From IMG/VR virus record IMGVR_UViG_3300008004_000605: a stretch of DNA of 34,250 nucleotides; one strand, written 5' to 3'. This document shows positions 494 to 23,617 of the stretch, piece after piece (the stretch's first letter is position 1; each line of letters opens with the position of its first letter). The translations under genes were made by a program, and so were the position numbers. The notes beneath the pieces are model-generated. The model made no database searches, was not told the origin of the DNA, and worked only from the letters and a program-made list of their open reading frames with translations. The stretch comes from a virus.

Positions 494-727
494 ATGAATG
501 AAAAAGACCGTGACAATTTAGCTTTTCTTTTAGGTGCTAGTCCAACAGTGTTAAAGGATTGGTATGAACAAATGAGTGCAGATGACCATAAGTATGCTAA
601 GGAATTATTGGATTCATTTCAAAAAGAGATAGATGAAAAGATTTTAGATGAAAAAGTATCAGAAGAATTATCAAAAATGGAGACTTTCCCTGATATTACT
701 AAAATGCTGAATAAATTTATGCTTTAA
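494..727 (+). CDS. Small acidic hypothetical protein resembling small ORFs of large environmental phages
   Basis: AGGAG RBS at 483-487, ATG; pattern DRDNLAFLL..SP.VLKDWY.QM..DD..YA.ELL recalled from phage hypothetical proteins (not verified by search). Confidence 0.7.
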   Translation: MNEKDRDNLAFLLGASPTVLKDWYEQMSADDHKYAKELLDSFQKEIDEKILDEKVSEELSKMETFPDITKMLNKFML

Positions 728-1377
728 ATTTTACTAAATTCTTTATTTTCATTAGTTGTTAAAGCTAAATCAATCATAAGTGTTCTTACAAAAATAAGAG
801 TTTTAATTTCTACCGATAAGTTAAGATAATTAATACTTTGAAGAGTTGAGTGATTGATGTTAAAGCATAGATCAAATATGTAATATTTTACAATACTAAT
901 ATTATCCCATTTGCAAGCAAGAATAAGTCCTTCAGACATTATGTTATGAATATCATACGGTATGATGTGATTTTTTGTAAAATAATCAACAATTGATATA
1001 TGGTTGTTATGGCAAGCATAAATAAATCCTTCTTCACATGATTTGAAATATTTATCATCTATAAAAAGAATACTTAAAAAATATTTTAAACATTTTAATT
1101 GCCCATATTCACAAGATTTAATAATAAATTGATTTTTTTCAATATTGTGTGTGTTGTAGTCTTCAATATTGCTAAAAAGATATTCAATAATATCTAAATG
1201 TCCATATTTAATGGCTTCCAAAATTAAATTTTCAATATTAAATGAAATGTCTATATAGTCTTTAAATTGAGGGTTTGTTAATATTTTTTTAATGGAATAA
1301 AGATTTCCATTTTGACAAAATTCTAAAATGGATTTTTCAATAGATTCTAAAGAGAGGTTTAAAGATGTTGAATTCAT
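724..1377 (-). CDS. Ankyrin-repeat protein with C-terminal KI tail
   Basis: Four ankyrin-like units: LILEAIKYGHLDIIEYLF, FIIKSCEYGQLKCLKYFL, GFIYACHNNHISIVDYF, GLILACKWDNISIVKYYI. Confidence 0.8.
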   Translation of the reverse strand: MNSTSLNLSLESIEKSILEFCQNGNLYSIKKILTNPQFKDYIDISFNIENLILEAIKYGHLDIIEYLFSNIEDYNTHNIEKNQFIIKSCEYGQLKCLKYFLSILFIDDKYFKSCEEGFIYACHNNHISIVDYFTKNHIIPYDIHNIMSEGLILACKWDNISIVKYYIFDLCFNINHSTLQSINYLNLSVEIKTLIFVRTLMIDLALTTNENKEFSKI

Positions 1378-1617
1378 ATTTGTTCTGACATTAATTTACT
1401 AAATATCTTTTACATTATAAAAAAAGTCAAGAAAAAATAAAAAACATACAAAATTAAAATTTTGGGTATTGATTTTAGATAAAAATATTGATAACTCTTT
1501 TGAAGATATAAAAGTGATAAGTTTATTTATACAAGGTAATTAATCAGAAGTTTTTAAAATAAATTTTGTCTGAATAAGTATAAGTTTAATAAAGTTAATA
1601 TAAAAAAAGAGGAATAT

Positions 1618-2763
1618 ATGATTGATTTAAGTATTGTAAAAATATTAGAAAAAGAAAAAGTTAGACAAGCAACAACAATAGAGTTAATTGCAAGTGAAAA
1701 TTTTGTAAGTAAAGCAGTTATGGATTTATGTGGTTCTGAATTCACTAATAAATATGCTGAAGGTTTGCCTGGTAAAAGATATTATAATGGATGCGAAAAT
1801 GTAGACGAAATAGAGGTTTTAGCAATAACATATTTAAAAAATCTATTTGGATGTGAATATGCAAATGTTCAGCCACATAGTGGAGCAAATGCAAATTTTG
1901 CTGTATTTAAAGCTTTTTTAAGTCCAAATGATACTATCGTAGGAATGGATTTATCTAGTGGTGGTCATTTAAGTCATGGAGCCTCAGTAAATATTAGTGG
2001 TGCTTGGTTTAATTCTGTAAGTTATGGTGTTAACAGCATGGGGTTATTAGATTATGAAGAAATACAAAAGTTGGTATTAAAAGAGAATCCAAAAATGGTA
2101 ATAGCTGGAGCTAGTGCATATAGTCAAATAATTGATTGGAAAAAATTTAAAGAAATAGCAGATAGTGTAGGTGCTATTTTATTGGCAGATGTAAGTCATT
2201 ATAGTGGATTAATTGTTGCCAAAGAATATCCAAATCCACTTCCTTATGCAGATGTTGTAACTAGCACAACACATAAAACACTACGTGGTCCAAGGGGTGG
2301 TGTAATTATGTGGATGAATGAATCTTTTTCTAAAAAAATTAATGGTGCTGTATTTCCAGGAACACAAGGTGGACCATTAATGCACATTATTGCAGCTAAA
2401 GCTCAATGTTTTTATGAGGCTAGTCAACCAGAATTTAAATTATATGCTAGACAAATTAAATTAAATTCAAAAGCTATGGCCAAAATTTTTAAAGCAAATA
2501 ATATAGATATTGTCAGTGGTGGCACAGAATCTCATATGATGACAATAGATTTAACAAAAGAAAACATAAGTGGAAAAGAGTATGCGAATCTTTTAGAGGC
2601 CAATGGAATTACCGTTAATAAAAATGGAGTTCCTAATGATAAAAGAGGTTTTGTTGAAACATCAGGTATTAGAATCGGGGTAGCAGCAGAAACAACAAGA
2701 GGTCATAAAGAAGATTGGTTTGAAGCCCTTGCTTTAAAAATGATTAAAATTCTTAAAGGGTAA
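1618..2763 (+). CDS. glyA: Serine hydroxymethyltransferase (short, 381 aa)
   Basis: IELIASENF, TNKYAEGLPGKRYYNGC, NVQPHSGANAN, GGHLSHG, PLP-lysine motif TTHKTLRGPRGG, FPGTQGGPLMHIIAAKA; GAGGA RBS. Confidence 0.97.
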   Translation: MIDLSIVKILEKEKVRQATTIELIASENFVSKAVMDLCGSEFTNKYAEGLPGKRYYNGCENVDEIEVLAITYLKNLFGCEYANVQPHSGANANFAVFKAFLSPNDTIVGMDLSSGGHLSHGASVNISGAWFNSVSYGVNSMGLLDYEEIQKLVLKENPKMVIAGASAYSQIIDWKKFKEIADSVGAILLADVSHYSGLIVAKEYPNPLPYADVVTSTTHKTLRGPRGGVIMWMNESFSKKINGAVFPGTQGGPLMHIIAAKAQCFYEASQPEFKLYARQIKLNSKAMAKIFKANNIDIVSGGTESHMMTIDLTKENISGKEYANLLEANGITVNKNGVPNDKRGFVETSGIRIGVAAETTRGHKEDWFEALALKMIKILKG

Positions 2764-2769
2764 CAGGGA

Positions 2770-2803
2770 AAAACATCTTAATATTTAAGGGAGAAGATGT
2801 TTT
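2770..2803. terminator. Stem-loop between convergent genes, possible terminator
   Basis: AAAACATCTT (2770-2779) / AAGATGTTTT (2794-2803) inverted repeat just after the glyA stop. Confidence 0.45.
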
Positions 2804-2808
2804 GTTAA

Positions 2809-3099
2809 TCATGAATTATAGTTAATATTGTGAATTAATTTAACTTTTTCTTCGTTAGTAAGTGGATCAAGAATATCAAATTCTTTTTCTAAAAATTCTT
2901 GTTCATTAATTTCTTTTCCATTAAAAATAGAATCATCAATATGTGTTGTCTCAAATGGTGTGGCTTCTTGACAGACAATAGTATCATAAGCATGAATTAT
3001 TGTTTCTCCACGAATGGCATATCTTTTTTTAGAAACAGAAACAACTTCAACAATAAATAAACGGTCTTCTTTCTTTACTAATGTATTAATGTTATTCAT
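2809..3099 (-). CDS. Hypothetical protein (start revised to ATG 3099, MNNINTLVKK)
   Basis: The track start at 3153 overlaps a promoter; AAGGA RBS precedes ATG 3099. Confidence 0.7.
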   Translation of the reverse strand: MNNINTLVKKEDRLFIVEVVSVSKKRYAIRGETIIHAYDTIVCQEATPFETTHIDDSIFNGKEINEQEFLEKEFDILDPLTNEEKVKLIHNINYNS

Positions 3100-3124
3100 G
3101 ATGATATATCCTTTTAGTTGGTGA

Positions 3125-3153
3125 ATTTTATGGCTAAAAGATAAAAAAGTCAA
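3125..3153 (-). promoter_or_regulatory. Sigma70-type promoter TTGACT-17-TAAAAT
   Basis: -35 at 3153-3148, 17-nt spacer, -10 at 3130-3125. Confidence 0.65.
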
Positions 3154-3170
3154 TAATTATATTTTTTACC

Positions 3171-3279
3171 TGACTTAAAATAATGTGGATGACTTAACCG
3201 ATTCACTAATGCTGACAATGACTTAGGCTTGTTTTGACTCAAATTTGTGTTATAAGTCAAGAATTCTGTGGATAAGTCT
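3171..3279. repeat. Cluster of TGACTTA heptamers upstream of the transposase
   Basis: TGACTTA at 3171, 3190, 3219; TGACTCA at 3235; inverted TAAGTCA at 3253 and TAAGTCT at 3273. Confidence 0.7.
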
Positions 3280-4143
3280 ATGAAAAATTGCCCTAACACT
3301 ACTTGCCAAAACCATACTGGAACACCAAAAAATTGGTATGTTAAGAATGGCTACTACAAGCCAAAGTCTACCAATCAGAAGACTCCAAGGTATCAATGTA
3401 AGGCTTGTAAAAAGAACTTCTCCACACATACAGACTTACCATCTGCTAACCAGAAGAAGCCCAAGATAAACCAGGAACTTTTCAAGTTGCTTGTGTCTGG
3501 TGTGTCATTGAGAAGAGCAAGCAAGATTTTGGAAGTGGAATACAACACTGTGGTTGCTCACTTCAACTACTTGGCTGAACAAGTCAAAAAGGCTCACTAC
3601 AAACACTTGAAGACCATACAGACTACCTTTGTCCAGGTGGATGAGATGGAAACCTATATACATGCTCGTGCAAAGCCTTTGTCTGTTCCTTTGGTGGTAA
3701 GGGTTAAGACTGGTGAAATTCTAGGCTTCAGTGTTGCCAAAATGCCTGCTAGGGGAACTCTGGCACAGATAGGTATCCAAAAATATCAATGGTATGACGA
3801 TGAGAGAAGTAAGAAATTTCAGGCTATGTTGGTGTCTATCAAAAATTGCTTTGACCCAAACATAACATTCAAGTGTGACAACCACACTTCTTACAACAAA
3901 TGGATAACCAATCAAGTTCCCAATGCTAAATTGGAACAAATCACAGCCGGCAAGAAGAAGTCAAAGAGAGATGGTGATAAAGAATTTGACCCCTTGTTCT
4001 CTATCAACAATACTTTTGCCCGTATGAGGCACGATATGAATAGATTGGCAAGAAAAACTTGGTCAACTACAAAAGCCATACACGGATTAGAAAATCATAT
4101 ATGGCTTTATATTGCTTGGAACAATAAATATAAGATTAAATAG
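3268..4143 (+). mobile_element. IS1-family transposase (fused InsA/InsB-like: Zn ribbon, HTH, DDE)
   Basis: CPNTTC...RYQCKACKKNF zinc ribbon; GVSLRRASKILEVEYNTV HTH; VQVDEMETY, FKCDNHTSY, SINNTFARMRHDMNRLARKT DDE-type blocks. G+C 37-45% in two lines counted, well above flanks. Start is GTG 3268 or ATG 3280. No right inverted repeat found. Confidence 0.85.
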
Positions 4144-6777: not shown

Positions 6778-6788
6778 TTTTTACCCCT

Positions 6789-7871: not shown

Positions 7872-10800
7872 ATGCAAATAACAAAAAGAGATGGTAGCAA
7901 ACAAGAGTTAGATTTAAATAAGATTCATGCTGTTTTAACATGGGCTTGTGAAGGAAGAAATGATGATGCGTTACACCCAATAAAAGGGGTATCAATTTCT
8001 CAAATAGAAATGAATGCACAATTACATTTTTATGATGGTATGCCAACTAAACAAATTCATGAAACACTAATTAAGGCTGCTTCAGAATTGATTTCAGAAG
8101 ACTTTCCAAATTATGATCAGGTTGCTGCACGTTTAGTATGGTTTTCTGTAAGAAAAGAAGCATTTAGAAATAATTTGCCTCCACATTTGTCAAAAATAAT
8201 TCATACAAATGTTGAAAATGGAGTATATGCAAAAGATATTTTAACAATATATTCAGAAGAAGAATTAGATGAAATAAATGCAATGATAGACCATCGTCGT
8301 GATGACTTATTTAAATATGCTGGTGCAGAACAAATGAGAAAGAAATATTTAGTTCAAAATCGTAAAACAAAAAAAGTTTTTGAATCATTTCAATTGCCAT
8401 ACATTATGGTTGCTGCGATATTATTTAGCAGTTATCCAAAAAACACAAGATTAAAATATGTTAAAAAATATTATGATTTAATATCTCAACATTATATTTC
8501 TTTGCCAACACCAATTATGGCAGGATTAAGAACAAGTGTGAAACAGTTTAGCTCTTGCACTCTAATTGAATCTGGAGATTCATTAAAATCAATAAATGCG
8601 GCCGCGGCAGCAATTGTAGATTATGCATCAAGAAAAGCAGGAATTGGTTTAAATATAGGTCAAATTCGTGCTGAAGGCCAAAAGGTTCGTGGTGGAGATG
8701 CAGTTACAACTGGAGTTGTGCCTTTTGCAAAATATTTTAATGGAGCATTAAAATCATGTTCTCAAGGCGCAGTGCGTGGAGCTTCAGCAACATTCAATTA
8801 TCCTATATGGCATCTAGAGTTTGAAAGATTAATTGAGTTGAAAAATAATAAAGGAACAGAAGAAACTCGTTTAAGAACTGTTGATTATTGTATTCACTTA
8901 AATCGTTTGTTTTATGAGCTTTTAGTTAAAAAAGGTGAGATTACTTTTTTTAGTCCAGAAGAAGTTCCTGAATTATATAAGGCATTTTATTCTAGTAATT
9001 ATAAAGAGTTTGAAAAACTTTATAAACAATATGAAAAGGATCCAAAAATAACTAAAAAAAAATTACCTGCTGTTGAGGTTTTTCAAAAGATTTTACAAGA
9101 GCGTTTTGAAACTGGTCGTATTTACATTATGAATGCTGACCATGTGAATACACATAGTTCATTTTATGAGTCAATTAAAATGACAAACCTTTGTTTAACA
9201 GGTGATACAAGGATTGTTACAAATAAAGGAATAAGAACATTAACTGATCTATATTCTTCACAAGAAGAATTTAATGTTTCTTCAGATGTTCGTGCTATTG
9301 AAAATCAAGAAATTATATTAAAATATGGAAATAGAAGTGAACAGAGATATTCAAATAAGATTGCTCAATTTGGTACAGATAATTTTAGAAGTTCTAAAGT
9401 TTTCATGACTAACCCCAATGCTGCTGTTTTTGAGGTTAAAACTGCTAGTGGATATTCGATAAAAGGAACTTCAGATCACAAGGTAATGACAGGTGATGGT
9501 TGGAAAACTATTGGTGAGTTATCTCCTGATGATAGTTTATACATTCAATCTGGTGAAGGTTTATTTGCTGAAAAATATGTGTTTGAAAAATTTGAATATG
9601 TTTCTTCAAATAATAAATGGAATAAGTATTATGCAGTAAACAAATTTAATGTTCCTACTGAGTCTGATGAAGAATTGGGTGAATTGATTGGTTGGCTGGT
9701 TGGTGATGGATTTATAGATACAACAAAAGACCATACTTATTTTGTTTTTGGAAATAAAGATTATGATCTAATTCCTAAAGTTAAATCTTATATTAATAAG
9801 ATTTTACCAACAGCGACGATTTCATTTAATGAATTTGAAAACTCTAAACAAATGTATGTTCAAGATAGACGTTTAGGATTGTGGTTGAAAAGTATTGGTG
9901 TTAGCAACAAGAAATCACATGAGAAAATTGTTCCTGGATTCATTTGGAAATCTGATAAAAAAACTGTTGCAGGATTTTTGCGTGGACTATTTTCTGCTGA
10001 TGGAACAGTATTAGCTTCTAATAAGGATAATTTTTCTTTAGCACTAAATAGTACAAGTAAAAAAATGTTAGATGAAGTTACTATACTATTAAGTAATTTT
10101 GGAATTAGAACATCTATTTACTTAAGAAAAGAAGAAGGTTTTGAATTATTACCAAATTCCAAAAGAGTGAAAGAACTTTATCCTACAAAAGAAATGTTTG
10201 GATTACATATTGGTAAAAATAATAGAGATATTTTTAAAAATGAAATTGGATTTAATTTATTGTATAAAAATGAAAAAGTAACTAATTTATCTTTAATGAG
10301 AAATGAAAAAACAAGAAGTGGGTTTTATCCAGAAAGATATCAGGATAGAATTATTTCTGTAAACTTTATAGAGTTTGCTCCAGTATATGATATTACTGTT
10401 GAAGAAAGTCATTCATTTATTGCTAATGGTTTAGTTGTTCATAATTGCACAGAGATTACATTACCAACAGCACCAGTAACATATGCTGGAGATACTCAAT
10501 ATGCTGAAGAAGATGGATTGATAGCACTTTGTACATTATCTGCTATTAATTGGGGGAAATTTATACCATTTGGTGATTTAGATGAAGAAAGTTCTATACC
10601 ACAAAGACAAGAAGTTAGGCTTAAAGATGCTTGTGATATGGCTGTTAGAGGGTTGGATGCACTTCTTGATTATCAAGAATATCCTGTGGAAGCAGCACGT
10701 CGTCATAGTATGAGATATCGTCCATTAGGAATTGGTATTATTGGATTTGGGCATTGGCTAGCTAAAGGTAAATTATATTGGGGAGAAGATAATACATTGG

Positions 10801-11411
10801 TTGAAGTTGAAACTATGATGGAAAAAATGGCTTATTATTTAACTGAGTCATCAATTAATTTAGCTGAAGAATTTGGTGGATTAACAACAAAAACAAAATA
10901 TCATGATGGAATTTTTCCTATTGATACTTCTATGTTTAAAGCGAAAACAAAAATGGATTGGAATTTGCTAAAAGCAAAAGCGAAAAAATTTGGTATTCGT
11001 AATGCAACATTAATGGCTTTAATGCCATCAGAAACATCTTCACAATTGTCTAACGAAACTAATGGTATAGAGCCACCAAGAGATATGGTATCAATTAAAG
11101 GTTCAAAAGAAGGTGTGTTGCCACAAATTGTTCCTGAATATACTAAGTTGGCAGCATTTTATCAAACTCTTTGGCAAGTTGAATCTAGAGATTATTTAAA
11201 AACAATTGCTATACTACAAAAATATATTGACCAAGCAATTAGTGTAAATACATCTTATGACCCAGGTAAGGGGGAAATTAAAATGAGTAAGTTAATTGAA
11301 GATTTATTGTTTGCTTATAAGCTTGGTCATAAAACATTATATTATTCTAATACTCGTGATGGAAGTGGTGAAAGTGATGATAGTTGTGATACTGGAGCCT
11401 GTAAAATATAA
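7872..11411 (+). CDS. nrdA: Class Ia ribonucleotide reductase alpha subunit, intein-containing
   Basis: N-terminal ATP cone (ITKRDG...KI), PTPIMAG, QFSSCTLI, QGAVRGAS, NL/CTEI, LCTLSAIN, MPSETSSQLSN, KTLYY, C-terminal C-x4-C. Extein is 761 aa after removing the intein. Confidence 0.97.
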   Translation: MQITKRDGSKQELDLNKIHAVLTWACEGRNDDALHPIKGVSISQIEMNAQLHFYDGMPTKQIHETLIKAASELISEDFPNYDQVAARLVWFSVRKEAFRNNLPPHLSKIIHTNVENGVYAKDILTIYSEEELDEINAMIDHRRDDLFKYAGAEQMRKKYLVQNRKTKKVFESFQLPYIMVAAILFSSYPKNTRLKYVKKYYDLISQHYISLPTPIMAGLRTSVKQFSSCTLIESGDSLKSINAAAAAIVDYASRKAGIGLNIGQIRAEGQKVRGGDAVTTGVVPFAKYFNGALKSCSQGAVRGASATFNYPIWHLEFERLIELKNNKGTEETRLRTVDYCIHLNRLFYELLVKKGEITFFSPEEVPELYKAFYSSNYKEFEKLYKQYEKDPKITKKKLPAVEVFQKILQERFETGRIYIMNADHVNTHSSFYESIKMTNLCLTGDTRIVTNKGIRTLTDLYSSQEEFNVSSDVRAIENQEIILKYGNRSEQRYSNKIAQFGTDNFRSSKVFMTNPNAAVFEVKTASGYSIKGTSDHKVMTGDGWKTIGELSPDDSLYIQSGEGLFAEKYVFEKFEYVSSNNKWNKYYAVNKFNVPTESDEELGELIGWLVGDGFIDTTKDHTYFVFGNKDYDLIPKVKSYINKILPTATISFNEFENSKQMYVQDRRLGLWLKSIGVSNKKSHEKIVPGFIWKSDKKTVAGFLRGLFSADGTVLASNKDNFSLALNSTSKKMLDEVTILLSNFGIRTSIYLRKEEGFELLPNSKRVKELYPTKEMFGLHIGKNNRDIFKNEIGFNLLYKNEKVTNLSLMRNEKTRSGFYPERYQDRIISVNFIEFAPVYDITVEESHSFIANGLVVHNCTEITLPTAPVTYAGDTQYAEEDGLIALCTLSAINWGKFIPFGDLDEESSIPQRQEVRLKDACDMAVRGLDALLDYQEYPVEAARRHSMRYRPLGIGIIGFGHWLAKGKLYWGEDNTLVEVETMMEKMAYYLTESSINLAEEFGGLTTKTKYHDGIFPIDTSMFKAKTKMDWNLLKAKAKKFGIRNATLMALMPSETSSQLSNETNGIEPPRDMVSIKGSKEGVLPQIVPEYTKLAAFYQTLWQVESRDYLKTIAILQKYIDQAISVNTSYDPGKGEIKMSKLIEDLLFAYKLGHKTLYYSNTRDGSGESDDSCDTGACKI
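9192..10445 (+). mobile_element. Intein with LAGLIDADG homing endonuclease (418 aa) in NrdA
   Basis: Starts CLTGDT, block B TSDHKV, LAGLIDADG motifs LIGWLVGDG and FLRGLFSADG, ends VYDITVEESHSFIANGLVVHN followed by Cys. Confidence 0.95.
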
Positions 11412-11415
11412 AAAT

Positions 11416-11448
11416 AAGAAAAGCCTTGTGAAAATCAAGGCTTTTCTT
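11416..11448 (+). terminator. Rho-independent terminator after nrdA
   Basis: Perfect 13-bp inverted repeat AAGAAAAGCCTTG / CAAGGCTTTTCTT with a 7-nt loop. Confidence 0.85.
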
Positions 11449-11498
11449 TAACTATTATGAATGGTTTGTTTTTAGATAAATAATGTCATAATTAAATT

Positions 11499-12001
11499 AT
11501 GAAAAGTATAAATTTAGAATTAGAAAATATAGCCAAACATTGTGATTTGAAAGAATGGATGTTAAAGTATCAATCTTTTCCTAAATCACATGATGGTAAA
11601 AAACAAAGTTATTTAAATAATAGCATTTATAAATGTTTTTCTAATAGTTTATAATTTAAGAATAAAAAACCATTGCTAGATTTTTTATTAAGTTAAGGTG
11701 GTTCATTTACAAATGAAACATTAAGTAAAATGTCTGTTCAAGGAGAAAGAGAAACAATAAGAAACTATATTCATACTTTTATCTGGGAAGATTTTTTTTA
11801 ATCCATCAAAAATTACATTAAATAGTAAAAAGAATTGTTTTGAAGAATGTATTCAATTAGGCTTTAATTATTTTAAAGAAGAAATGTTAATTATACCAAT
11901 AACTGAAATTGCTGAAGATTTACATCCATTTTTTAATAAAATAAGTTTAACATTTAATCTTTCAGAACAATTAATTTTAAATGTTGAAAAATAAAATTTA
12001 A
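11499..12001 (+). pseudogene. Decayed ~165-codon ORF of the KI-tail family
   Basis: ATG 11499; in-frame TAA at 11652 and 11694; +1 shift in T8 run 11792-11799; further +1 shift near 11990; ends AAA ATT TAA at 11993-12001. Reconstruction is inferred. Confidence 0.6.
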
Positions 12002-12002
12002 T

Positions 12003-12336
12003 ATGAAATTACAAACAAAAGAAAAAATAGAAAAGTGGCTATATGAATATGGTATAGAAAAGTATATAATTAATGATAATTTAACTATTGATGTTAATGG
12101 TGATGTGGATTTATCTGATAAAGATTTAATTGAAATATTAGTTAACATTCAATAATGTTTCTGGTGATTTTTATTGTTCAAATAACGAATTAACGAGTTT
12201 AAATGGGGCACATTAAAAAGTAGGTGGTTCTTTTAATTGTTATAATAATAGTTTACAAACACTATTTTATATCCCCAAGATTATTGGTAGAAAAAAACTA
12301 ATAGAGTTAAGATTTGAATTTTTGATTAAATTATAA
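12003..12336 (+). pseudogene. Decayed LRR-like repeat protein (VxGDFYCSNNxLTSL type)
   Basis: MKLQTKEKIEKWL..YGIEKYIINDNLTIDVNGDVDLSDK, +1 shift near 12147, then FNNVSGDFYCSNNELTSLNGAH*KVGGSFNCYNNSLQTL with TAA at 12214. Confidence 0.75.
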
Positions 12337-12386
12337 TTATCTATTATACTTTAAGAGAGTATAAAAAAAACAAAACGTGGTTAAAT

Positions 12387-13340
12387 ATGGAAAAAGAAAA
12401 AATTTTAAAAATAGCAATTGATATTTTAACTACTAAATATAGTGATGAATATATTGAAGAGTTGTGTAACAGTGGATATAAAAAGTTTTTATTAGGCCTA
12501 TCAAAGTTAGATGAACGTCAAATAATAAAGGTGTTAAATATTCATCCTGAGTATGCAAATAAAAAGATAACTGGATGGCATTCCTTACATTATGCCTGTT
12601 TACTTAATAATCCACATATATTGGATAATTTTATGAGGAAAGCTATAGCTGATGGAATGAAGACATTACCAACAACTGAAGTAATTAAAAAAGAAATAGA
12701 CAGTGGTTTAACTCTATTGAATTTTTGTGCATTCACAAATAACGAATACTCTTATGCAAAAGTTCTTACATTTCTAGGGAATATAGAAGAACAAAATTTT
12801 GAGGAATCATTAAGGTATGGATTACTTAATGGAAGTTATAAAACAGTTAAGTTAATTAATAAAATAATAGGTGAAGAAAAGTCTCAACAATTAATGTTGG
12901 AATTTTTCACTTCTAAACATATTACTCAAAATGGAAGATTAAGAGAAAATATAGATTATGCTTTAGTTGAAACATTTAAGCATAATCCATCAAAATTTGA
13001 TGATTATGGTATAGATATAAGAACAACAATTGTTGGGAAACCAAATTACTTTACATCAACATTAAAATTATTTTTAAGGGATACATATACTATTGAAAAA
13101 CAAGGTATAAATACAATTAAAAATTACTTAAGGTATTTTACAAGTAAAGGGTTTGATTTTGATACAAAAGATAATGAGGGTGTTACTCCAAGAGTATATT
13201 TAAATAAATTTATAGATAAATTATTTGATCAGAGCTTAAGAGATCAATTAATTAATTTTTTACCAGAAGTAGAAAAGGTTGCATTAGATAATGTTCTTGA
13301 AAAATCTACCTTAATAGAACCAAAGAAAATAAAGATTTAA
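12387..13340 (+). CDS. Degenerate ankyrin-like protein with KI tail
   Basis: GWHSLHYACLLNNPHIL, GLTLLNFCAFTNN, DFDTKDNEGVTP; ends LDNVLEKSTLIEPKKIKI. Confidence 0.65.
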   Translation: MEKEKILKIAIDILTTKYSDEYIEELCNSGYKKFLLGLSKLDERQIIKVLNIHPEYANKKITGWHSLHYACLLNNPHILDNFMRKAIADGMKTLPTTEVIKKEIDSGLTLLNFCAFTNNEYSYAKVLTFLGNIEEQNFEESLRYGLLNGSYKTVKLINKIIGEEKSQQLMLEFFTSKHITQNGRLRENIDYALVETFKHNPSKFDDYGIDIRTTIVGKPNYFTSTLKLFLRDTYTIEKQGINTIKNYLRYFTSKGFDFDTKDNEGVTPRVYLNKFIDKLFDQSLRDQLINFLPEVEKVALDNVLEKSTLIEPKKIKI

Positions 13341-15094
13341 ATTTTCTTTACTTTTTGCTTTACTGTATTGTGAGTAAGGTTAGCATCTAATTCTAAAACA
13401 TTGAATTGTTTAACAATTTTGTCAGCTATTAAATCTTCTTTACCATATGTTTTAAAGATGCTAATAATTTCATTCCATTGATTATCAAAAAAATCAGAGC
13501 CTAATTTAACATTATTTGTTAGACATGAATCTAGCAGTGAGTTAATTATAACAAATAGGTTAGACTGTTGTTTATATTCAGTAGTTAATATTTTATATTC
13601 ATGAGATGATTGATGTTCGCTTGTCCAAATTTTCGTCCAATTATCTTTAATTTTTGTTAATGTATTTTTTTTATCAAAGTCATTAAGGTTGTTAAAGTTT
13701 TTATTTATAATTTGGACTAAGACATTATGTTCAAGACTTGAATTAATGGGAAGTTGCAATGAGGTGATAATTAAAGCATCTAAAACATTAAGGGATTCAT
13801 TAAATGGTTTTTTAAAATCTATTTCTTTTTTATTTAGCCATCGTAATAAGTTAGAAAAACACTTTAGTGAAACATTTGCCTTACTGTCGTTAAGTTTAAG
13901 AAAATCCCACTCTCCATTTTGTGATTTAACCCAATCATCTTTTGAATTATCTAAGTTCTCAGGTTTTATTGGGAAATAACACTTTATATTCATTTCAGAA
14001 TTAACATATTGACGATTATTTGTTTTTAAAACAGCAGATAACATATCTGAATAATCCTCTATTTTGTCTTTACTTTTTAACCAATTCTTTAAAAATGCTT
14101 GTTTGTTTGTTATTAAATCTGGTTTATTAGGAACAGAAATTAAAACTTTATTGAAATCAACTTCAATTTTTTGATTTTTATTCAGTTGATTTAATGTCCT
14201 AATTTTACCTTCTTTAAGTAACTTGTTTTGTAAAGTCATTTTATTGGTTTCTTTATCAAAGAAATCTACACAATTAAGATTTACATATTTAAGTTCAAGT
14301 GTTTTTATAAGTGAAGATAAGTATTGTTCTTTAGGAATAGAACATGTTGAAAACAATATTTTACTTTGAAAATCAATATTAGTTGTTTTGTCTGTTGAAA
14401 TATTTTTCCAAATATTTTTCCCATCAGTAAGAATTTCTTTTATATCAAAAAAAGAAACAAATTTTCCATTTCTTGCCTGCTTAAACAATTTATTCATTTG
14501 AAAAACATTAGACAACCATAAGGTTTCAGAATTATCTTCCTTAGTAACTACTGTCCATGGAGTTAGGCCAAATAAAGAATCAATTTTTTTCATTTCATCA
14601 ATATGATGACAAGAAAGTAGAAATTGATTTAGATTTTGTTTATTTGTATCTAATTTATAAGTGTTCCAAATTATCTTTATTTCTTCATCTTTTAATAATC
14701 CAAGACTAAACGCTTGATAAGCAATTTTCTTCATTTTTAAAGAATCAATATTTATATCGTTAAAAAAATAATCATGGAAAGATTTTTCAGTAAAACCTTT
14801 AAGTGATAAAAATTTTAACTTAATTAATGGTTTTTTTTCATTACGAGAAATATTTGTATAAAGATTAAACTCTAATAGTTTTTCCCAGGTTAATCCTTGC
14901 TCAAATAATATATAAAAAGATTGTGCAATAACTTTTTCAACATTATCATTTGTTTTAAATTCAATATATAAAGAAACTAAATCTGCAACAACATCCTCAA
15001 TTGATTCTTCTTTTTTATTTATGGACAAAAAAATTGTATCAGTTGTGATTTTATTTTTCTGTAAAATTAGTTCTTTAATATTTTGATATAACAT
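13337..15094 (-). CDS. Hypothetical 585-aa protein with KI tail
   Basis: Long open frame, ATG preceded by AGGAAAG; ends LDANLTHNTVKQKVKKI; no recognisable domain. Confidence 0.8.
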   Translation of the reverse strand: MLYQNIKELILQKNKITTDTIFLSINKKEESIEDVVADLVSLYIEFKTNDNVEKVIAQSFYILFEQGLTWEKLLEFNLYTNISRNEKKPLIKLKFLSLKGFTEKSFHDYFFNDINIDSLKMKKIAYQAFSLGLLKDEEIKIIWNTYKLDTNKQNLNQFLLSCHHIDEMKKIDSLFGLTPWTVVTKEDNSETLWLSNVFQMNKLFKQARNGKFVSFFDIKEILTDGKNIWKNISTDKTTNIDFQSKILFSTCSIPKEQYLSSLIKTLELKYVNLNCVDFFDKETNKMTLQNKLLKEGKIRTLNQLNKNQKIEVDFNKVLISVPNKPDLITNKQAFLKNWLKSKDKIEDYSDMLSAVLKTNNRQYVNSEMNIKCYFPIKPENLDNSKDDWVKSQNGEWDFLKLNDSKANVSLKCFSNLLRWLNKKEIDFKKPFNESLNVLDALIITSLQLPINSSLEHNVLVQIINKNFNNLNDFDKKNTLTKIKDNWTKIWTSEHQSSHEYKILTTEYKQQSNLFVIINSLLDSCLTNNVKLGSDFFDNQWNEIISIFKTYGKEDLIADKIVKQFNVLELDANLTHNTVKQKVKKI

Positions 15095-15192: not shown

Positions 15193-16353
15193 ATGAATAT
15201 AAATGAAATAACAAAAGAAGATATTAATGAAAGAGAAAGAAGAGAAAAACAACAAGCATTAGAAGTTGTCTCTCAAAAAAATTGCATACTAAGAGTTGTG
15301 GCCGGTTCTAATGCATATGGAACTAATAATCCTGAGAGTGATTGGGATGAGCGTGGTATTTTTGTTGATGAAATGTCTAGAGTGATGTTACCTTTTGAAA
15401 AAATAGAACAAGTGCAATTAACTAGAGATGATGTCGTATTATATGAATTATCTAAATATATGCCACTATTACTATTGCAAAATCCAAATGTTATTGAATT
15501 AATTTGGACAGAAAAATCAGATATTATTGAAAAAAATGAACTTGGTGATTTATTGTTGGAAAATAGGTATGAGTTTTTATCTAAACAAGTTAAAGATAGT
15601 TATGTTGGTTATGCTCAATCACAATTAAAAAGAATCAAGGGACATAATAAATGGATTAATAATCCACAGCCTGAAAATGAACCTAAACAAAAAGATTTTA
15701 TATCTGTTGTTTGGAATTATACAAATGTTAAAGAGTTTAATAAGAAGGCTCCGTTAGATGGTTTTATTGCTGTTAATATAGGTGAAAATAATTTTTCTTT
15801 ATGGTCTATTGAAAAATTAAAAATAGATAAAAAATCATGGATAGATTCAGCAGGTAATCCTGTAGCTATTTCAAAGCAAGAATTAGATTCATTTAATCCA
15901 AATAATTTACCACCTGATGTAATTGTTAAGGTGAATAGGGATATTTACAGTGCTAATCACACAAACTGGAAAAGTTACTGGACATGGAAAAATAATAGAA
16001 ATGAAAAAAGGTCTGTATTAGAGGAAAAGTTTGGTTATGATGTAAAACATGCAATGCATTTAATCCGATTATTAAGAAGTGGTTTAGATATTTTAGAAAA
16101 TGGTATTGTTCCTGTAAAAAGACCAGATAAAGATTATCTTTTAGATATACGAAATGGTAAATTCACATATGATGAAATTATTAAGGAAAGCGAAATGTTA
16201 ACTAAAAAGGTAGAGGAAGTTAGTAAAAAAAGCTCTTTACCAAATGAGCCAAACTATCCACTAGCAAAAGCCTTAATGTTAGAAATATATATGAAGCAAT
16301 GGAATTTATCACCAAAAGAAATTGCAACAAAAGTTGTAGGATTAAAAATGTAA
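15193..16353 (+). CDS. DNA polymerase beta superfamily nucleotidyltransferase (RlaP / T4 NrdC.11-like)
   Basis: AGSNAYG...SDWDERGIF signature; QNPNVIELIW; GYAQSQLKRI; RSVLEEKFGYDVKHAMHLIRLL; AAGGA RBS. Confidence 0.88.
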   Translation: MNINEITKEDINERERREKQQALEVVSQKNCILRVVAGSNAYGTNNPESDWDERGIFVDEMSRVMLPFEKIEQVQLTRDDVVLYELSKYMPLLLLQNPNVIELIWTEKSDIIEKNELGDLLLENRYEFLSKQVKDSYVGYAQSQLKRIKGHNKWINNPQPENEPKQKDFISVVWNYTNVKEFNKKAPLDGFIAVNIGENNFSLWSIEKLKIDKKSWIDSAGNPVAISKQELDSFNPNNLPPDVIVKVNRDIYSANHTNWKSYWTWKNNRNEKRSVLEEKFGYDVKHAMHLIRLLRSGLDILENGIVPVKRPDKDYLLDIRNGKFTYDEIIKESEMLTKKVEEVSKKSSLPNEPNYPLAKALMLEIYMKQWNLSPKEIATKVVGLKM

Positions 16354-16383
16354 AGGTTGTTTATTTTAAACTTTAGTGCTTAT

Positions 16384-16416: not shown

Positions 16417-16506
16417 ATCTATTTATGTTATTAAAAAAGTTTTTAATAAAAACTAGAAATTAATTTCTTATTATAAAATTTTAACTTATTTTATAATAAG
16501 AGTAGA

Positions 16507-18060: not shown

Positions 18061-18127
18061 ATCAGTCCTAGTTAATAGATATATATTTTATACAAAACTT
18101 TTTAATAATGTCAAAATGAAATTATTA

Positions 18128-18934
18128 TTATTCGTTAATTATCTGAATTTTATTTATATAATCTAAAAATCCATTTTGGGATATTTTATATATAAGGTCA
18201 AAATCGTCTTCTATTTTAATATTTTCAATATTGTCTAAGAAGTATGGAATAGCAAATCCAGAGGCATATTTGTTTTTAATTGGATTACTGTTGAAATCTT
18301 CAATACGTTTTTTTGATAAAAATAATATTTCTTCAAGATTTTTATCGTTATTAGACTTAACTAATAATGATAATGCAAAAATATCTGAAAATATTTCATG
18401 ATAAACAGATATTGGAGGTGCTATTTTGAAATCTTTATTTAAACAGTGTATATCTTGTAAGCTTCTAATAGATAACATTGTTAAATTTTCAATTTTTTTA
18501 TTTAATATAGAAATTTTATCTTTTGATAAATCTATTTTCCAATTAATATCATTAGTAAATTGAGATTTATCTAAAACACAATGACCAATTTCATGCCAAA
18601 TAGAGAATGATAAATCATGTTCAAAAGAACTTAATAAAATTGGTTTTTCATTTGGATAAGATACGGTGATAAGACAAGTTTTTGTTTGGGCATTACTTTG
18701 AGAAATATATTTTTTAGAGTTTCCAATATTTAGATTAATTTCACCAGAAACAACATCAACAGAATGGTTATAATAAATAGATAAAGTTTCATCTATTATA
18801 GTGCTATATGTTTGTTCCTGAATTTTATCAGAATAATTAACCGTCAATGTTTTTGTTTGAGAAAAAGAAAAGATTGGGAGCCAAAGCAATAAAGTAATGG
18901 TGTTTTTTAATATTGTTATAAATTTCTTTTTCAT
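18128..18934 (-). CDS. Exported putative zinc metallopeptidase (HExxH plus ExxxD)
   Basis: Signal-peptide-like MKKKF...LLLWLPIFSFS; IWHEIGHC; YHEIFSDIFAL. Confidence 0.6.
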   Translation of the reverse strand: MKKKFITILKNTITLLLWLPIFSFSQTKTLTVNYSDKIQEQTYSTIIDETLSIYYNHSVDVVSGEINLNIGNSKKYISQSNAQTKTCLITVSYPNEKPILLSSFEHDLSFSIWHEIGHCVLDKSQFTNDINWKIDLSKDKISILNKKIENLTMLSIRSLQDIHCLNKDFKIAPPISVYHEIFSDIFALSLLVKSNNDKNLEEILFLSKKRIEDFNSNPIKNKYASGFAIPYFLDNIENIKIEDDFDLIYKISQNGFLDYINKIQIINE

Positions 18935-18964
18935 ATATAATGTTTCATAAATTATTTAATATAG

Positions 18965-19798
18965 ATGAATCATAATATGAAAAAGAAAAATACTCAAGAA
19001 GAAAACAATATATCCTTAAGTGGGAAAGTTATAGATAAAGAGACAATTGTTAAAAATTGGTTACCTAGATATACTGGTATGCCATTAGAGATGTTTAAAA
19101 AGCATATTTTACTTGTTAATTTTAAGCATTATTTAAAGAGCTTCTCTGAACACTATAATGTTCCAATTTATGGAGAGGATAAGGCAATGCAAGTTGCAAG
19201 CTATGATGATATAACAATCATTAATTTTGGAATGGGGAGTGCAAATGCAGCAACAGTAATGGATTTATTGACAGCTATAAAGCCAAAAGCTTGCCTTTTC
19301 CTTGGGAAATGTGGTTCATTAAAAGACAAAATATCAGTGGGTTCTTTATTATTACCAATTGGAGCTATTCGTGGAGAAGGAACAAGCAATGATTATTTTC
19401 CTGAAGTGGTTCCCGCTTTACCAGCCTTTCAACTTCAAAGAGCAGTAAGTCATATTATCAAAAGATATGAGCAGGAGTATTTTACAGGAACTATTTATAC
19501 AACAAATCGTAGAGTGTGGGAGCACGATGAAGATTTTAAGAAAAAATTACATGATATGAGAGCTACAGCAATTGATATGGAAACAGCAACTATATTTATT
19601 ACTGGATTCCATAATGATATTCCAACAGGAGCATTACTTTTAGTGAGTGATCAACCCATGACACCAGAAGGAATTAAAACTGAAAATTCAGATAAGGCTG
19701 TGACTGGAAACTTTTCGCTATTACATTTAAAAATAGGAATGGATTCATTAAAACAAATACGAGATAGTGGAGAATCTGTAAAGCACTTGAAATATTAA
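18965..19798 (+). CDS. amn: AMP nucleosidase, short form (PNP/UDP family)
   Basis: NWLPRYTG, IINFGMGSANAATVMDLL, LFLGKCG, AIRGEGTSNDY, YTTNRRVWEHD, IDMETAT, GALLLVSD.PM.PEG.KT. Confidence 0.9.
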   Translation: MNHNMKKKNTQEENNISLSGKVIDKETIVKNWLPRYTGMPLEMFKKHILLVNFKHYLKSFSEHYNVPIYGEDKAMQVASYDDITIINFGMGSANAATVMDLLTAIKPKACLFLGKCGSLKDKISVGSLLLPIGAIRGEGTSNDYFPEVVPALPAFQLQRAVSHIIKRYEQEYFTGTIYTTNRRVWEHDEDFKKKLHDMRATAIDMETATIFITGFHNDIPTGALLLVSDQPMTPEGIKTENSDKAVTGNFSLLHLKIGMDSLKQIRDSGESVKHLKY

Positions 19799-19827
19799 AA
19801 ACATCAGTTAAAACAAGAGATTTAATT

Positions 19828-20871
19828 TTAACGAAGATTTTGTTTTTCTTGTTTTTTCTTTTTGTCTTTAAAAAATTCTTGGCTATCTAATTTTACCTGA
19901 ATAGCATAACTTGATGCTAATCTTGGATAAAACTCAATACCTGTTAGCTTTTCAACTTCTTGTATTGGAACAACAAAATCAGATAAAGAACATGGATTTC
20001 CGTGACATGTGTATACATTTTTTTGGTCATTAAATTTTTGATTTGTAGTTGTATATATTTCTTTATTAGGGAAAATATAAGAAACAGTTCCATATGTGTA
20101 TGGTTGAGTAATTATTTTATAAAAATGAGTTGGAATAAGAGTTTCTGATTTTGGAAGTTTACCATTAGTTGTTCCATTAAGGTAAATAACTCCAGTAGTA
20201 ACATAAATGATTGTTTTATCCCATGCTAGAAGTCTAGTTTGATATTCTAACTCAGACCAAATTGTATTTGCTAGATTATTAGAAACCATAGGGGCTGTTG
20301 ATGAAAACAAATAGGTTTGATTCATTGCTTTTAAATTTAACTTTTCTAAATCATCTGGCATCAAACTTTCATTATTAATTATTTCATTTTGAAATGGAGT
20401 AAGTGATTTTGATGTATAGATAGAGTTAATGTAGTCTGCTGGAAGCTGTTGCATAATTCCTGGAATATCATCATCAGGCCCAAATTTTGCATCTAAAACA
20501 AATGGTTTCATTTCGAAATTTTTTTTCTCTAAAACTTCACTACTCCAAAGAGGAACCTTTAATAATGGATCAAATTGAACGGCAAATTTACTATTACAAA
20601 TAAATAAAGATCTTTTGTTTACTTGTTTATCTTTTATTCTTGGTGCTCCCCAAGGGTAATTGTCTGGACATTGTCCTTCTTTCATAAATTTTGTTAAGTC
20701 TTTACCTTCAGCTTGGTCAACAGATTTTCCTCCTGGTTTAGAATGAATTAAATCAGAAAAAAAATGACCAAAATCAAAAGCATAGACATTTGATGTCATC
20801 ATAATAGTTGTTAAAAAAAGTCCATTAAGAAGTTTTTTGTTTAAAGTTCTTGCCATTTTAGTTTTTTCCAT
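19828..20871 (-). CDS. Exported DNA/RNA non-specific endonuclease-fold protein lacking catalytic residues
   Basis: Signal peptide (...TSNVYA); FAVQFDP..KVPLWSSEVL, IWSELE, YVTTGVIY, IPTHFYKII, IQEVEKLTGIEFYP. The expected DRGH is replaced by TSKS. Confidence 0.8.
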   Translation of the reverse strand: MEKTKMARTLNKKLLNGLFLTTIMMTSNVYAFDFGHFFSDLIHSKPGGKSVDQAEGKDLTKFMKEGQCPDNYPWGAPRIKDKQVNKRSLFICNSKFAVQFDPLLKVPLWSSEVLEKKNFEMKPFVLDAKFGPDDDIPGIMQQLPADYINSIYTSKSLTPFQNEIINNESLMPDDLEKLNLKAMNQTYLFSSTAPMVSNNLANTIWSELEYQTRLLAWDKTIIYVTTGVIYLNGTTNGKLPKSETLIPTHFYKIITQPYTYGTVSYIFPNKEIYTTTNQKFNDQKNVYTCHGNPCSLSDFVVPIQEVEKLTGIEFYPRLASSYAIQVKLDSQEFFKDKKKKQEKQNLR

Positions 20872-20925
20872 TTAACGTAGTAGTATAAGAATAATAGAAA
20901 AATTAAATTCTGCAAGAGATTTAAA

Positions 20926-21474
20926 ATGAAAAAGCAAAAAGATTGGAAATTAATACTAAACATAACATCTCATCATGGAGTGTTTATTAATGTTGGGGAA
21001 AGGGGTGAGTCCTTAATGACCCTATATGAAAACATTGACGAAATTAAATTAATAAATGATGTTTTAATTCTTTTACCATCAACTCAAGAGTTCGAAAATA
21101 AAGATACAACAAATTATATAAAAAAACTTGCACCATTATTAAAGTCTTTTATTGAAGATAAAAGTAAAAAAACAATAATTACTGAAGAAACGGTATTAAA
21201 TACATTATTAAAAGAAGATAAAAGAACAAGTTTTTTTAAATTCTTAGTTAATAATAAGAAGAATATAGTTGTTTTTTGTAAAACTGATTATGAAAGATAT
21301 ATTAAATCAATTCAACCATCTTATCATTATATATTAATGACCAGTGAAGGGTGGGGGAAAAATACAGAAATGTTTAATAGATTTAAAGATATAAAGATAG
21401 CAATAGAAAAAATTTATAACCCATTTAAAAACCCATTAGTTGCTTTTAAAAAATATGCTGAAGAAAAATCTTAA
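20926..21474 (+). CDS. Hypothetical protein
   Basis: 182-aa open frame with ATG; fills gap between neighbours. Confidence 0.7.
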   Translation: MKKQKDWKLILNITSHHGVFINVGERGESLMTLYENIDEIKLINDVLILLPSTQEFENKDTTNYIKKLAPLLKSFIEDKSKKTIITEETVLNTLLKEDKRTSFFKFLVNNKKNIVVFCKTDYERYIKSIQPSYHYILMTSEGWGKNTEMFNRFKDIKIAIEKIYNPFKNPLVAFKKYAEEKS

Positions 21475-21944
21475 TCAACCCATGTATTACCTATTGATTC
21501 TTTAGGAATTTCTATCTTCAGTGTGTCATCAAAAAAATATTGATCTAAAAGGAAAATCTTTTTCCATATTTCATGTTGTTGATTAAGATTAAGATTATAT
21601 GTATTTCTAATTCTTATAAAAATTTCACTAACTTTTTCAATAAAATTATGATTTTTAATTAGAATAGCATTTTTCTTACTAAACATAATTAATTCATAAA
21701 TATTTTTGGTAATTTTACTTCTATCTACATTGTCAGAAAAGGTTATGGTATCAATTGATAGAGGGTAGTCTTTTGGCTTCGTTAATACTAAGGCTTTTTT
21801 ATTAATAATAATCATAACCTTTAATACTTCAGAAGAAACATCAATAGATAATACAGCACAATTATTTTTTTGTGCTAAAACAATATTTTCATAAAATGAT
21901 GTATATGTTTTTTGAATAAAGTAAATCTTTTTGAAAAAAAACAT
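21471..21944 (-). CDS. Hypothetical protein
   Basis: 157-aa open frame; shares the TTAA stop with the convergent neighbour. Confidence 0.6.
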   Translation of the reverse strand: MFFFKKIYFIQKTYTSFYENIVLAQKNNCAVLSIDVSSEVLKVMIIINKKALVLTKPKDYPLSIDTITFSDNVDRSKITKNIYELIMFSKKNAILIKNHNFIEKVSEIFIRIRNTYNLNLNQQHEIWKKIFLLDQYFFDDTLKIEIPKESIGNTWVD

Positions 21945-22012
21945 ATTTTTAATTTAATAAATAAACACTATTTTAAAGTAAATTTAATAGGGTTATTAAT
22001 TTAAGATTCCGT

Positions 22013-22666
22013 TTAGTTATTATCTTTAGGCATATTAAAATCAACATCTTTAATTGCTTTTAATAATTCTTTATCTTGATTAACATTTTCATTAATTATC
22101 TCTGAAATTAACTCCATATCATCATCAGCAACATCCCTTGTATTAGATGTTAATTCACTACCAAAAAAGATTCTTTGACATTCATCATGAATTATTCTCA
22201 TTACTCTAAAATGCATATGTTTTACACCAAGAATAAATCTTTCTTGTTGCTTATAGCTGTCATATAAATGTGGGACATCAAACTCCCAATCATAAAAGAC
22301 ACGTCCACGAGCAATATCAATAGTTGGATCATTTTTGCTACCCCAAATAGAGTAGACTTCATTATGTGAGTCAGAAGCAAAAGCACCTTGAAGTTCGTCA
22401 TCATTAATGGCTATTCCAATTTTTAATGTGTCTGAAAGTTGCCAAAAAGAATAAAAAACATTAAAGTTCTTATCAAAAAAACTCCCATTAATATTAATAA
22501 TCATATCTCCATATTCACTATTAACAAAAGTATTGGACATGTCTGGAAGAATGTAATATTTATCTTGATTCAAGACAATATCTATTTTAGATGGTGGTCT
22601 ATTAATATGTTCAATAATTTGCTGAAAAAAAACTTCTCTTTTAGACAGAAGGGTATCTTTATCCAT
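22013..22666 (-). CDS. Hypothetical acidic protein
   Basis: AAGGAGA RBS, ATG, upstream promoter TTGACT-16-TAAATT. Confidence 0.8.
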   Translation of the reverse strand: MDKDTLLSKREVFFQQIIEHINRPPSKIDIVLNQDKYYILPDMSNTFVNSEYGDMIININGSFFDKNFNVFYSFWQLSDTLKIGIAINDDELQGAFASDSHNEVYSIWGSKNDPTIDIARGRVFYDWEFDVPHLYDSYKQQERFILGVKHMHFRVMRIIHDECQRIFFGSELTSNTRDVADDDMELISEIINENVNQDKELLKAIKDVDFNMPKDNN

Positions 22667-22707
22667 AGGGTTCTCCTTAATTGAGTAAAATTTAACACTT
22701 TGTGTTT

Positions 22708-22730
22708 AAAAGTCAAGAAAATTGACTTTT
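22708..22730. promoter_or_regulatory. Palindrome AAAAGTCAA-5-TTGACTTTT made of back-to-back -35 boxes
   Basis: Perfect 9-bp inverted repeat between divergent genes 22013-22666 and 22757-23617. Confidence 0.6.
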
Positions 22731-22756
22731 TAATGTAAATTTTTTAATAAGAAAAA

Positions 22757-23617
22757 ATGATAAATAATATCTTCAAAAAATTAAAAAAAGCCCAAAATTC
22801 AATGTCGGTTAAAGATTATTGTATTTATTTTTTAAATATTTTTAATCAAGATTACTCAATATGGTCATTAGAGAAATTAGAGAAGGAAATAAAGAAAGCA
22901 AATGGTGATTTATTTCCAGAATCTATTAATTTATATAATTATTTTCATGATGGAAATTATGAATTTGTAGCAAATTTTATATATTCTTTTCCAAATATTA
23001 AAAAAGAGTGGCTTATGTCAAATACTAATTATTTAGAATTAGATGAGATTGAGATTTATAAAACAATATTTGATAAAAATTCAGAAGATTTTATTTTCAG
23101 TAAATTAATGTTTAATCAAGAAAAAATGCTGTGTGATGATAGTATAAATAAGATAATTACTTATTTGTTTATATTGTTTCTTCCTGGTATTAATAGTGAT
23201 GAATTTTTGTTCCATTTTAAAAAGAATAAACCATTAATATGTTGTGTTAATGTATCAAATAAAAGTTTTGATACTTTATTGGAAATAACTACAGAATATA
23301 TTAAAAAAAATAATTTTACTTATGATAAAAATTTAAATCACTTATTGGTTGGTGACTTTATGACCATAGCGAATGAATTACATGACTTCAATGAAGAAAC
23401 AAAATGGACAGAAATTTTACCAATCTATAAAATAAATAAATTTTTTGATTTAAATTATGGATTTTTAAATATAAGTGATACTATTGATAAAAAAATAATG
23501 ATACTTTTTGAAAATTTACCAACAATACTTTTATTTATAGAAAAAGAATATTCATATTTAAAGTTAAAAAAAGAGTTGTCATCAAGTGATAAAAAAGAAA
23601 AAATCCAAAAAATTTAA
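22757..23617 (+). CDS. Hypothetical protein with KI tail
   Basis: 286-aa open frame; ends LKKELSSSDKKEKIQKI. Confidence 0.75.
   Translation: MINNIFKKLKKAQNSMSVKDYCIYFLNIFNQDYSIWSLEKLEKEIKKANGDLFPESINLYNYFHDGNYEFVANFIYSFPNIKKEWLMSNTNYLELDEIEIYKTIFDKNSEDFIFSKLMFNQEKMLCDDSINKIITYLFILFLPGINSDEFLFHFKKNKPLICCVNVSNKSFDTLLEITTEYIKKNNFTYDKNLNHLLVGDFMTIANELHDFNEETKWTEILPIYKINKFFDLNYGFLNISDTIDKKIMILFENLPTILLFIEKEYSYLKLKKELSSSDKKEKIQKI

Follow-up and report, generated by a model that had tools for sequence, protein, structure and literature searches.

Otherwise unrelated proteins encoded on IMGVR_UViG_3300008004_000605, a 34,250-base stretch analysed here at its full length (hereafter, the window), share a short C-terminal tail that opens with an L-x3-L element and ends in Lys followed by an aliphatic residue at the free carboxy-terminus. 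An earlier reading made from the letters alone (the sequence-only reading) had proposed one protein-level tail on proteins with unrelated bodies, and this proposal held, as the tail is kept in the orthologs of three families while the bodies diverge to 28-46% identity. Judged from these alignments, the tail is selected at the protein level, and we lean, with modest confidence, to the view that it is a clade-specific, modular short linear motif serving as a common docking or address tag. The proteins in question are the following.

724-1377, minus strand: ankyrin-repeat protein of 217 residues, ending in LMIDLALTTNENKEFSKI (about nucleotides 724-780), with SKI as its last tripeptide
12387-13340, plus strand: ankyrin-fold protein of 317 residues, tail at residues 300-317, LDNVLEKSTLIEPKKIKI (about nucleotides 13284-13340)
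13337-15094, minus strand: alpha-solenoid protein of 585 residues, tail at residues 569-585, LDANLTHNTVKQKVKKI (about nucleotides 13337-13390)
22757-23617, plus strand: ORFan of 286 residues, tail LKKELSSSDKKEKIQKI (about nucleotides 23564-23617)
15193-16353, plus strand: RlaP-like nucleotidyltransferase, with a 16-residue tail after a conserved Trp, NLSPKEIATKVVGLKM (about nucleotides 16303-16353), and a K-M end

The four intact open reading frames (ORFs) that the sequence-only reading had named (724-1377, 12387-13340, 13337-15094 and 22757-23617) end as it wrote, with AAA or AAG, ATT and TAA as their last codons. Its fifth case, a pseudogene at 11499-12001, fell away, since the frame ends in LILNVEK-stop and KI is obtained only after deleting one base by hand. 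The bodies of the carriers (two ankyrin-type proteins, one solenoid, one ORFan and one nucleotidyltransferase) are indeed unrelated, with no homology found by blastp or hhalign, and the ankyrin assignment of two of them was likewise upheld, by Pfam for the 217-residue protein (Ank_2 at 1.8e-9) and by fold comparison for the 317-residue protein (Foldseek matches to ankyrin domains, probability 1.00, E about 1e-4 to 1e-3). The 585-residue protein showed a generic alpha-solenoid fold only. A hydrophobic N-terminal segment is missing from all four, in agreement with the claim that they lack an N-terminal signal peptide, and the three proteins of the window that do carry a Sec signal are all without the tail. 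A homologous C-terminal domain was rejected as a common element (hhalign probabilities of 2% or less). PHROGs gave no match for the carriers, the atlas comparison of the 286-residue ORFan stayed below noise level, and promoter context did not separate the tail genes from the other genes of the window.

Orthologs of the 317-, 286- and 585-residue proteins were found on related metagenomic replicons, on contigs of up to 348 kb. For the 585-residue protein, a word-index search returned no homolog, and an exhaustive HMMER search returned about ten orthologs. The alignment of this family (A3; 11 sequences, 22-36% identity to the window protein) contains only three invariant columns out of 651 (W486, K581 and K584), two of which are lysines of the tail, and I585 and L569 are nearly invariant. 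Identity over the last eight columns is 0.76, compared with 0.51 overall, and every member ends in K-x-x-K-[IL], one of them in KIKL, giving the consensus hydrophobic-E-L-x3-L-x8-11-K-P-x-K-I. In the family of the 317-residue protein (alignment A1; six orthologs at 38-46% identity), L300, N302, L304 and K316 are invariant and the end is kept as K-S-L-D-N-x-L-P-K-x4-Q-P-K-K-I-K-[ILV], also seen as S-L-x-N-x-L...PK(K/R)(I/L)K(I/L/V)-stop. The single ortholog of the 286-residue ORFan, P0036 (43% identity), retains YLKL-KEL...IQKI-stop. Taken together, all 19 orthologs end in K-[ILV] and 17 of the 19 fit the broadened motif, with upstream conservation that reaches 15-18 residues (L-x3-L, Pro and Lys at -5) in the three families.

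A C-terminus-anchored matrix was built from the orthologs of the 585-residue protein alone, with all internal 20-mers as the null. With this matrix, the ends of the 286-residue, 317-residue and RlaP-like proteins fall in the top 0.03-0.45% of the null, the 286-residue protein being the one in the top 0.03%. The 217-residue ankyrin protein, which fits the expression L-x3-L-x11-KI and reaches only about 8-10% of the null under C-terminus-anchored matrices, is by its sequence a probable carrier of the tail.

AlphaFold2 models of the 317- and 585-residue proteins (mean pLDDT, the model's per-residue confidence, of 80 and 84) place the last helix at residues 282-301 and 555-572, respectively. In both models, this helix ends inside L-x3-L and no secondary structure follows, with pLDDT below 50 for residues 308-317 of the first protein and low confidence, below about 50, for residues 576-585 of the second. 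The net charge of the last 12 residues is +2 to +4 for the 317-, 585- and 286-residue proteins and the RlaP-like enzyme, and 0 for the small ankyrin protein; such values are unexceptional in this Lys-rich proteome. The tail would have three parts. The last helix of each carrier would close in hydrophobic-(E/D/x)-L-x3-L. Some 9-14 residues, polar and rich in Lys, would come next, with no predicted structure and often with K-P or P-K near their end. At the free carboxy-terminus, an invariant Lys would precede a final aliphatic residue, mostly as K-I and more rarely as K-L, K-V or K-M.

The RlaP-like enzyme (Pfam RlaP) offers a view of how the tail may be gained. The window copy ends in GLKM. Among 12 copies from the close clade, 12-21 Lys-rich residues follow the conserved Trp (median 15.5), and six end in [KR]-hydrophobic (LKF, LKM, PRI, NKM, PKM and VKL), whereas the median is three residues in 118 distant copies, of which three end in [KR]-hydrophobic. 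All 12 close-clade copies have the long tail, which the 118 distant ones essentially lack, and we conclude that an old enzyme family acquired it in this clade alone.

The sequence-only reading would have been refuted had KI-stop with this Leu spacing been no commoner than Lys and Ile composition predicts, and the counts show an excess. About 30 ORFs of the replicon, all in this window, could be used for C-terminal statistics. KI makes up 0.86% of internal dipeptide positions, from which 0.26 KI ends are expected in 30 ORFs, and six were observed (binomial 2e-7); the full expression of the sequence-only reading matches four of the 30 ends against 0.01 expected, a figure that is post hoc. As an outside baseline, ORFs were called in the other fetched IMG/VR phage contigs and binned by GC content. 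KI ends numbered 1/61 below 32% GC, 5/596 at 32-40% and 6/1361 at 40% and above, with end-to-internal ratios of 2.1, 1.6 and 1.7, respectively, compared with 6/28 and a ratio of 24 in the window. Contigs of similar GC thus show 0.8-1.6% of KI ends. In the wider class, K-hydrophobic ends reach 36% in the window, and [KR]-hydrophobic ends are at or below 17% in every other fetched contig.

Two KI ends had been overlooked by the sequence-only reading, in addition to the K-M end of the RlaP-like gene. They are given here with the remnants that contain its fifth case.

7872-11411, plus strand: class Ia ribonucleotide reductase alpha subunit NrdA (Pfam), ending in GACKI, with ATA as the Ile codon
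27027-28103, minus strand: LytS-type histidine kinase (Pfam His_kinase), with four transmembrane-like segments, ending in PFISKKI
11412-12386, plus strand: degraded gene remnants that include the frame 11499-12001, not a tail case as written

Escherichia coli R1 and a second class Ia enzyme of solved structure have the same GACKI end as NrdA, indicating that this end is ancestral and lies outside the tag system. The histidine kinase has no L-x3-L, shares only the KI dipeptide with the tail and scores at about 6-16% of the null with the matrix, and is probably not a carrier. Core enzymes therefore do not carry the full motif to an equal extent, as NrdA and the kinase have the dipeptide alone. 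The AMP nucleosidase (18965-19798, plus strand; a short form, NCBIfam PRK07115, 393 bits) has a K-Y end and aligns to the end of the PRK07115 profile, so that this end is also probably ancestral and outside the tag. NrdA contains an intein at about residues 480-860 (Pfam Intein_splicing and LAGLIDADG_3), and no nrdB adjoins it. Three-frame translation of 11412-12386, about 1 kb between NrdA and the gene of the 317-residue protein, showed several frame breaks together with leucine-rich-repeat-like remnants (GDFYCSNNELTSLNG and GGSFNCYNNSLQTL), which points to one or more decayed genes.

A DNA-level AAAATTTAA site had been put forward as an alternative to a protein tail, and it was not borne out. 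Counted over both strands, the nonamer AARATTTAA has 23 copies where 15.8 +/- 4.1 would be expected. The five gene-end copies account for this excess; the remaining 18 are intergenic, antisense or out of frame. The codons at the ends are ordinary: ATT accounts for 61% of Ile codons and AAA for 82% of Lys codons, and the gene ends show ATT in 5/5 and AAA in 4/5 cases, so that the final codon has no special bias for ATT over general usage. Finally, the last residue of the orthologs is I, L or V, an interchange by which the nonamer is lost. On these three grounds we rejected the DNA site.

Some features of the gene ends were recorded alongside. Three pairs of convergent genes have an overlap of exactly four bases (724-727, 13337-13340 and 21471-21474), a shared TTAA that gives TAA on each strand. 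One of these is the pair formed by the genes of the 317- and 585-residue proteins, whose stops lie in a near-palindrome around 13332-13345, both genes ending in K-I-stop. Between convergent genes at 23590-23640 there is an inverted repeat, ATCCAAAA / TTTTGGAT, whose loop contains the stop of the 286-residue ORFan; this repeat is a possible bidirectional terminator.

The window has about 26% GC and contains 31 substantial ORFs, with 89% of its length coding; Lys makes up 10% and Ile 9% of its proteome. About half of the ORFs have no assigned family. The genes recognised with Pfam, NCBIfam and PHROGs are these.

SHMT, GMP reductase, AMP nucleosidase and a PRTase-like protein
class Ia NrdA split by a LAGLIDADG intein, the LytS-type histidine kinase and a T5orf172/ResIII helicase
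a sigma-32 family factor back to back with dnaE
the RlaP-like nucleotidyltransferase, facing a metallophosphoesterase

With the same three collections, no capsid, terminase, portal, type IV secretion system, Dot/Icm, coupling-protein, protease, AAA+, PDZ or TPR gene was found among the 31 ORFs. There was no match to the HK97-fold/encapsulin family in the window, tRNA and Rfam searches of it gave no matches, and the phage, plasmid, IMG/VR, GTDB and JGI collections gave neither an exact nor a near match to its DNA; an exact 50-mer was likewise absent from viral, genome and metagenome collections. The genes are bacterial in type, with Shine-Dalgarno sites, a sigma-32 factor and DnaE, and give no indication of a eukaryotic host. 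The sigma factor (30435-31432) scores above the NCBIfam sigma-32 subfamily cut-off (255 vs 241 bits) and below the RpoH equivalog cut-off; its divergent pairing with dnaE is not a bacterial chromosomal arrangement.

Identical copies of the window's proteins occur on about 45 public contigs, of which the longest has 221,187 bp. Nine other proteins of the window were each found on 37-49 contigs, whereas its 585-residue protein differs from the commonest public version (P0002, on 45 contigs), suggesting that the window comes from a minor strain variant. DnaE has at most 51% identity to any bacterial or viral copy among the matches listed, GTDB included, and in the tree its branch is long and falls outside the clusters of beta- and gammaproteobacteria. 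The only sequence that groups with it, at 46% identity, is the long-branched viral copy of L002 (IMG/VR, 42 kb), a join flagged as possible long-branch attraction. Relatives of the RlaP-like gene at 56-76% identity lie on metagenome contigs of 36-436 kb, and copies further removed occur on numerous IMG/VR phage contigs of up to 379 kb, one of which (L258) has NrdA nearby. The IMG/VR contigs that carry DnaE and RlaP had no tail ORFan in common with the window, and no relative of the 585- or 317-residue families was found in IMG/VR. Based on RlaP on many IMG/VR contigs, its company with NrdA on L258, the T5orf172 domain, the intein-bearing NrdA, the genes of nucleotide metabolism and the contigs of 72-436 kb on which relatives sit, we read the replicon as belonging to an unsampled clade of giant, AT-rich elements that are probably phage-like.

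The enrichment at gene ends, the conservation across families, the lack of predicted structure, the invariant K-aliphatic terminus and the modular gain on the RlaP-like enzyme all fit a short linear motif read through its free C-terminus. One shared partner would read the K-hydrophobic end and would thereby gather the carriers, mostly repeat scaffolds plus a nucleotidyltransferase, at one place. Free C-termini are known to be read by PDZ domains, TPR domains, AAA+ pores and capsid interiors. Our best single guess for such a place, made by analogy and offered tentatively, is that the tag brings its carriers into the particle, as encapsulin cargo-loading peptides do with their cargo on HK97-fold shells, so that they are delivered together with the DNA; we rank it first because the gene content resembles that of a huge phage. 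That the tag instead docks the carriers to another hub or compartment encoded by the replicon seems rather unlikely.

Several observations weigh against the docking or address tag. No candidate gene for a reader of the tag (capsid, terminase, portal, AAA+, PDZ or TPR) is present in the window. Known phage capsid-targeting signals are N-terminal propeptides that are cleaved, and we know of no phage precedent for a C-terminal packaging signal. The small ankyrin protein and the kinase match the tail in little beyond KI, only six of the 12 close-clade RlaP tails end in [KR]-hydrophobic, so that the rule looks looser there, and only some 30 ORFs of the replicon were counted. The phage identity of the replicon is itself not proven, given that the close clade is absent from the IMG/VR searches and the window holds no structural gene.

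In its most explicit form, the docking or address tag would be a C-terminal cargo-loading peptide, composed of an L-x3-L helix cap, a Lys-rich tether and K-aliphatic-COOH, that loads dozens of unrelated proteins, ankyrin and solenoid scaffolds and a nucleotidyltransferase of RNA-repair type among them, into the particle or another dedicated compartment; we regard this form as possible, on the doubtful side. If it is true, no earlier sorting signal of tailed phages would be both C-terminal and uncleaved, a novelty that follows from the N-terminal position and cleavage of the known signals, and encapsulin loading would have a living counterpart. More generally, the proteins marked by the tag are ORFans and repeat proteins of giant replicons whose clade is unstudied, and its conservation allows uncharacterised proteins to be grouped by destination ahead of function and provides a bait for the reader of the tag. 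Should it load a capsid or other compartment, it would also make a simple portable tag for cargo loading.

Among the alternatives, the one that survives best is a degron, in which the tail would be recognised by an AAA+ unfoldase or protease of the ClpX type and serve the timed removal or remodelling of early proteins. The ClpX tag of the phage Mu transposase MuA, RRKKAI, is likewise a basic cluster ending in Ile on a disordered C-terminal tail, and the tails of the window, 12-14 residues without predicted structure, are long enough for engagement by a pore. However, the second-to-last residue of MuA is Ala and not an invariant Lys, the conserved L-x3-L and the frequent Pro of the tail are absent from MuA and would be unnecessary for a pore-engaged degron, and MuA is a single protein whereas the tail occurs on a set of families. 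With no protease or unfoldase gene in the window and a link that is one of resemblance, we judge this explanation unlikely.

Still less probable, in our estimation, is a secretion or translocation signal, by which a basic tail would be read by a type IV coupling protein (VirD4/DotL type) or another export ATPase and the carriers would be effectors destined for another cell. Two ankyrin-type carriers and one alpha-solenoid are typical effector scaffolds, no carrier has a Sec signal, and the tails are C-terminal, mildly basic and without predicted structure; substrates of VirB/D4 have positively charged C-terminal signals. These likenesses extend to the VirB/D4 and Dot/Icm signals in general, which are C-terminal, unstructured and basic and occur on effectors with unrelated bodies, frequently with ankyrin repeats. 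On the other hand, the known signals are loose compositional biases, poorly conserved, unlike a K-aliphatic terminus whose last two residues stay nearly fixed across orthologs of 30% identity; the charge of the carrier tails does not stand out among the Lys-rich proteins around them, no component of a type IV secretion system is present in the window, and the gene content and relatives look phage-like. The proposed link to type IV secretion is thus one of analogy only.

The weakest alternative, that the tails have no shared function and KI ends come from the Lys/Ile-rich composition at 26% GC, from a stop-codon context in which Lys at -2 favours termination or from the DNA site, can draw on a generally raised Lys at -2 (16% in other low-GC phage contigs vs 9.5% overall), on the Lys and Ile content of the proteome and on the two KI ends, of NrdA and the kinase, that are indeed unrelated to the motif, but it is largely refuted, and to our mind very improbable, in view of the expected number of KI ends, the similar-GC contigs, the conservation far upstream of the end in three families, the terminal I/L/V interchange that does not keep the nonamer and the ordinary codon use at the ends.

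The motif matches none of the known C-terminal tags, namely those of secretion systems, encapsulins, peroxisomes and AAA+ proteases. The peroxisomal targeting signal type 1 (PTS1; [SAC]-[KRH]-[LMI]-COOH, read by the TPR domain of Pex5) resembles the tail in several respects: position -2 is basic and position -1 aliphatic, the carboxylate has to be free, and the dodecamer before the signal is flexible and basic. Position -3 differs, as the three conserved families have K, I, L, N, Q, V or M there, and only the SKI of the small ankyrin protein fits; as this position is not small in the three conserved families, PTS1 was rejected for the tail as a family. The capsid-targeting propeptides of T4 and phiKZ-like phages resemble the proposed function in that they bring a large set of unrelated proteins into a single particle to be co-injected; the heads of giant phages contain more than 50 proteins. 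These propeptides are N-terminal and cleaved by the prohead protease, whereas the element common to the carriers is C-terminal, with no sign of a cleavage motif, and their N-termini share nothing. Encapsulin cargo-loading peptides are short, conserved, extreme C-terminal peptides found on unrelated cargo behind a flexible linker, and they can be appended to other proteins; the encapsulin shell has the fold of the tailed-phage capsid (HK97). The peptides of encapsulin family 1 are rich in Gly, Ser and Leu (type SLGIGSLK), a composition that differs from that of the Lys-rich tails of the window, and we know of no phage that uses an encapsulin-type peptide.

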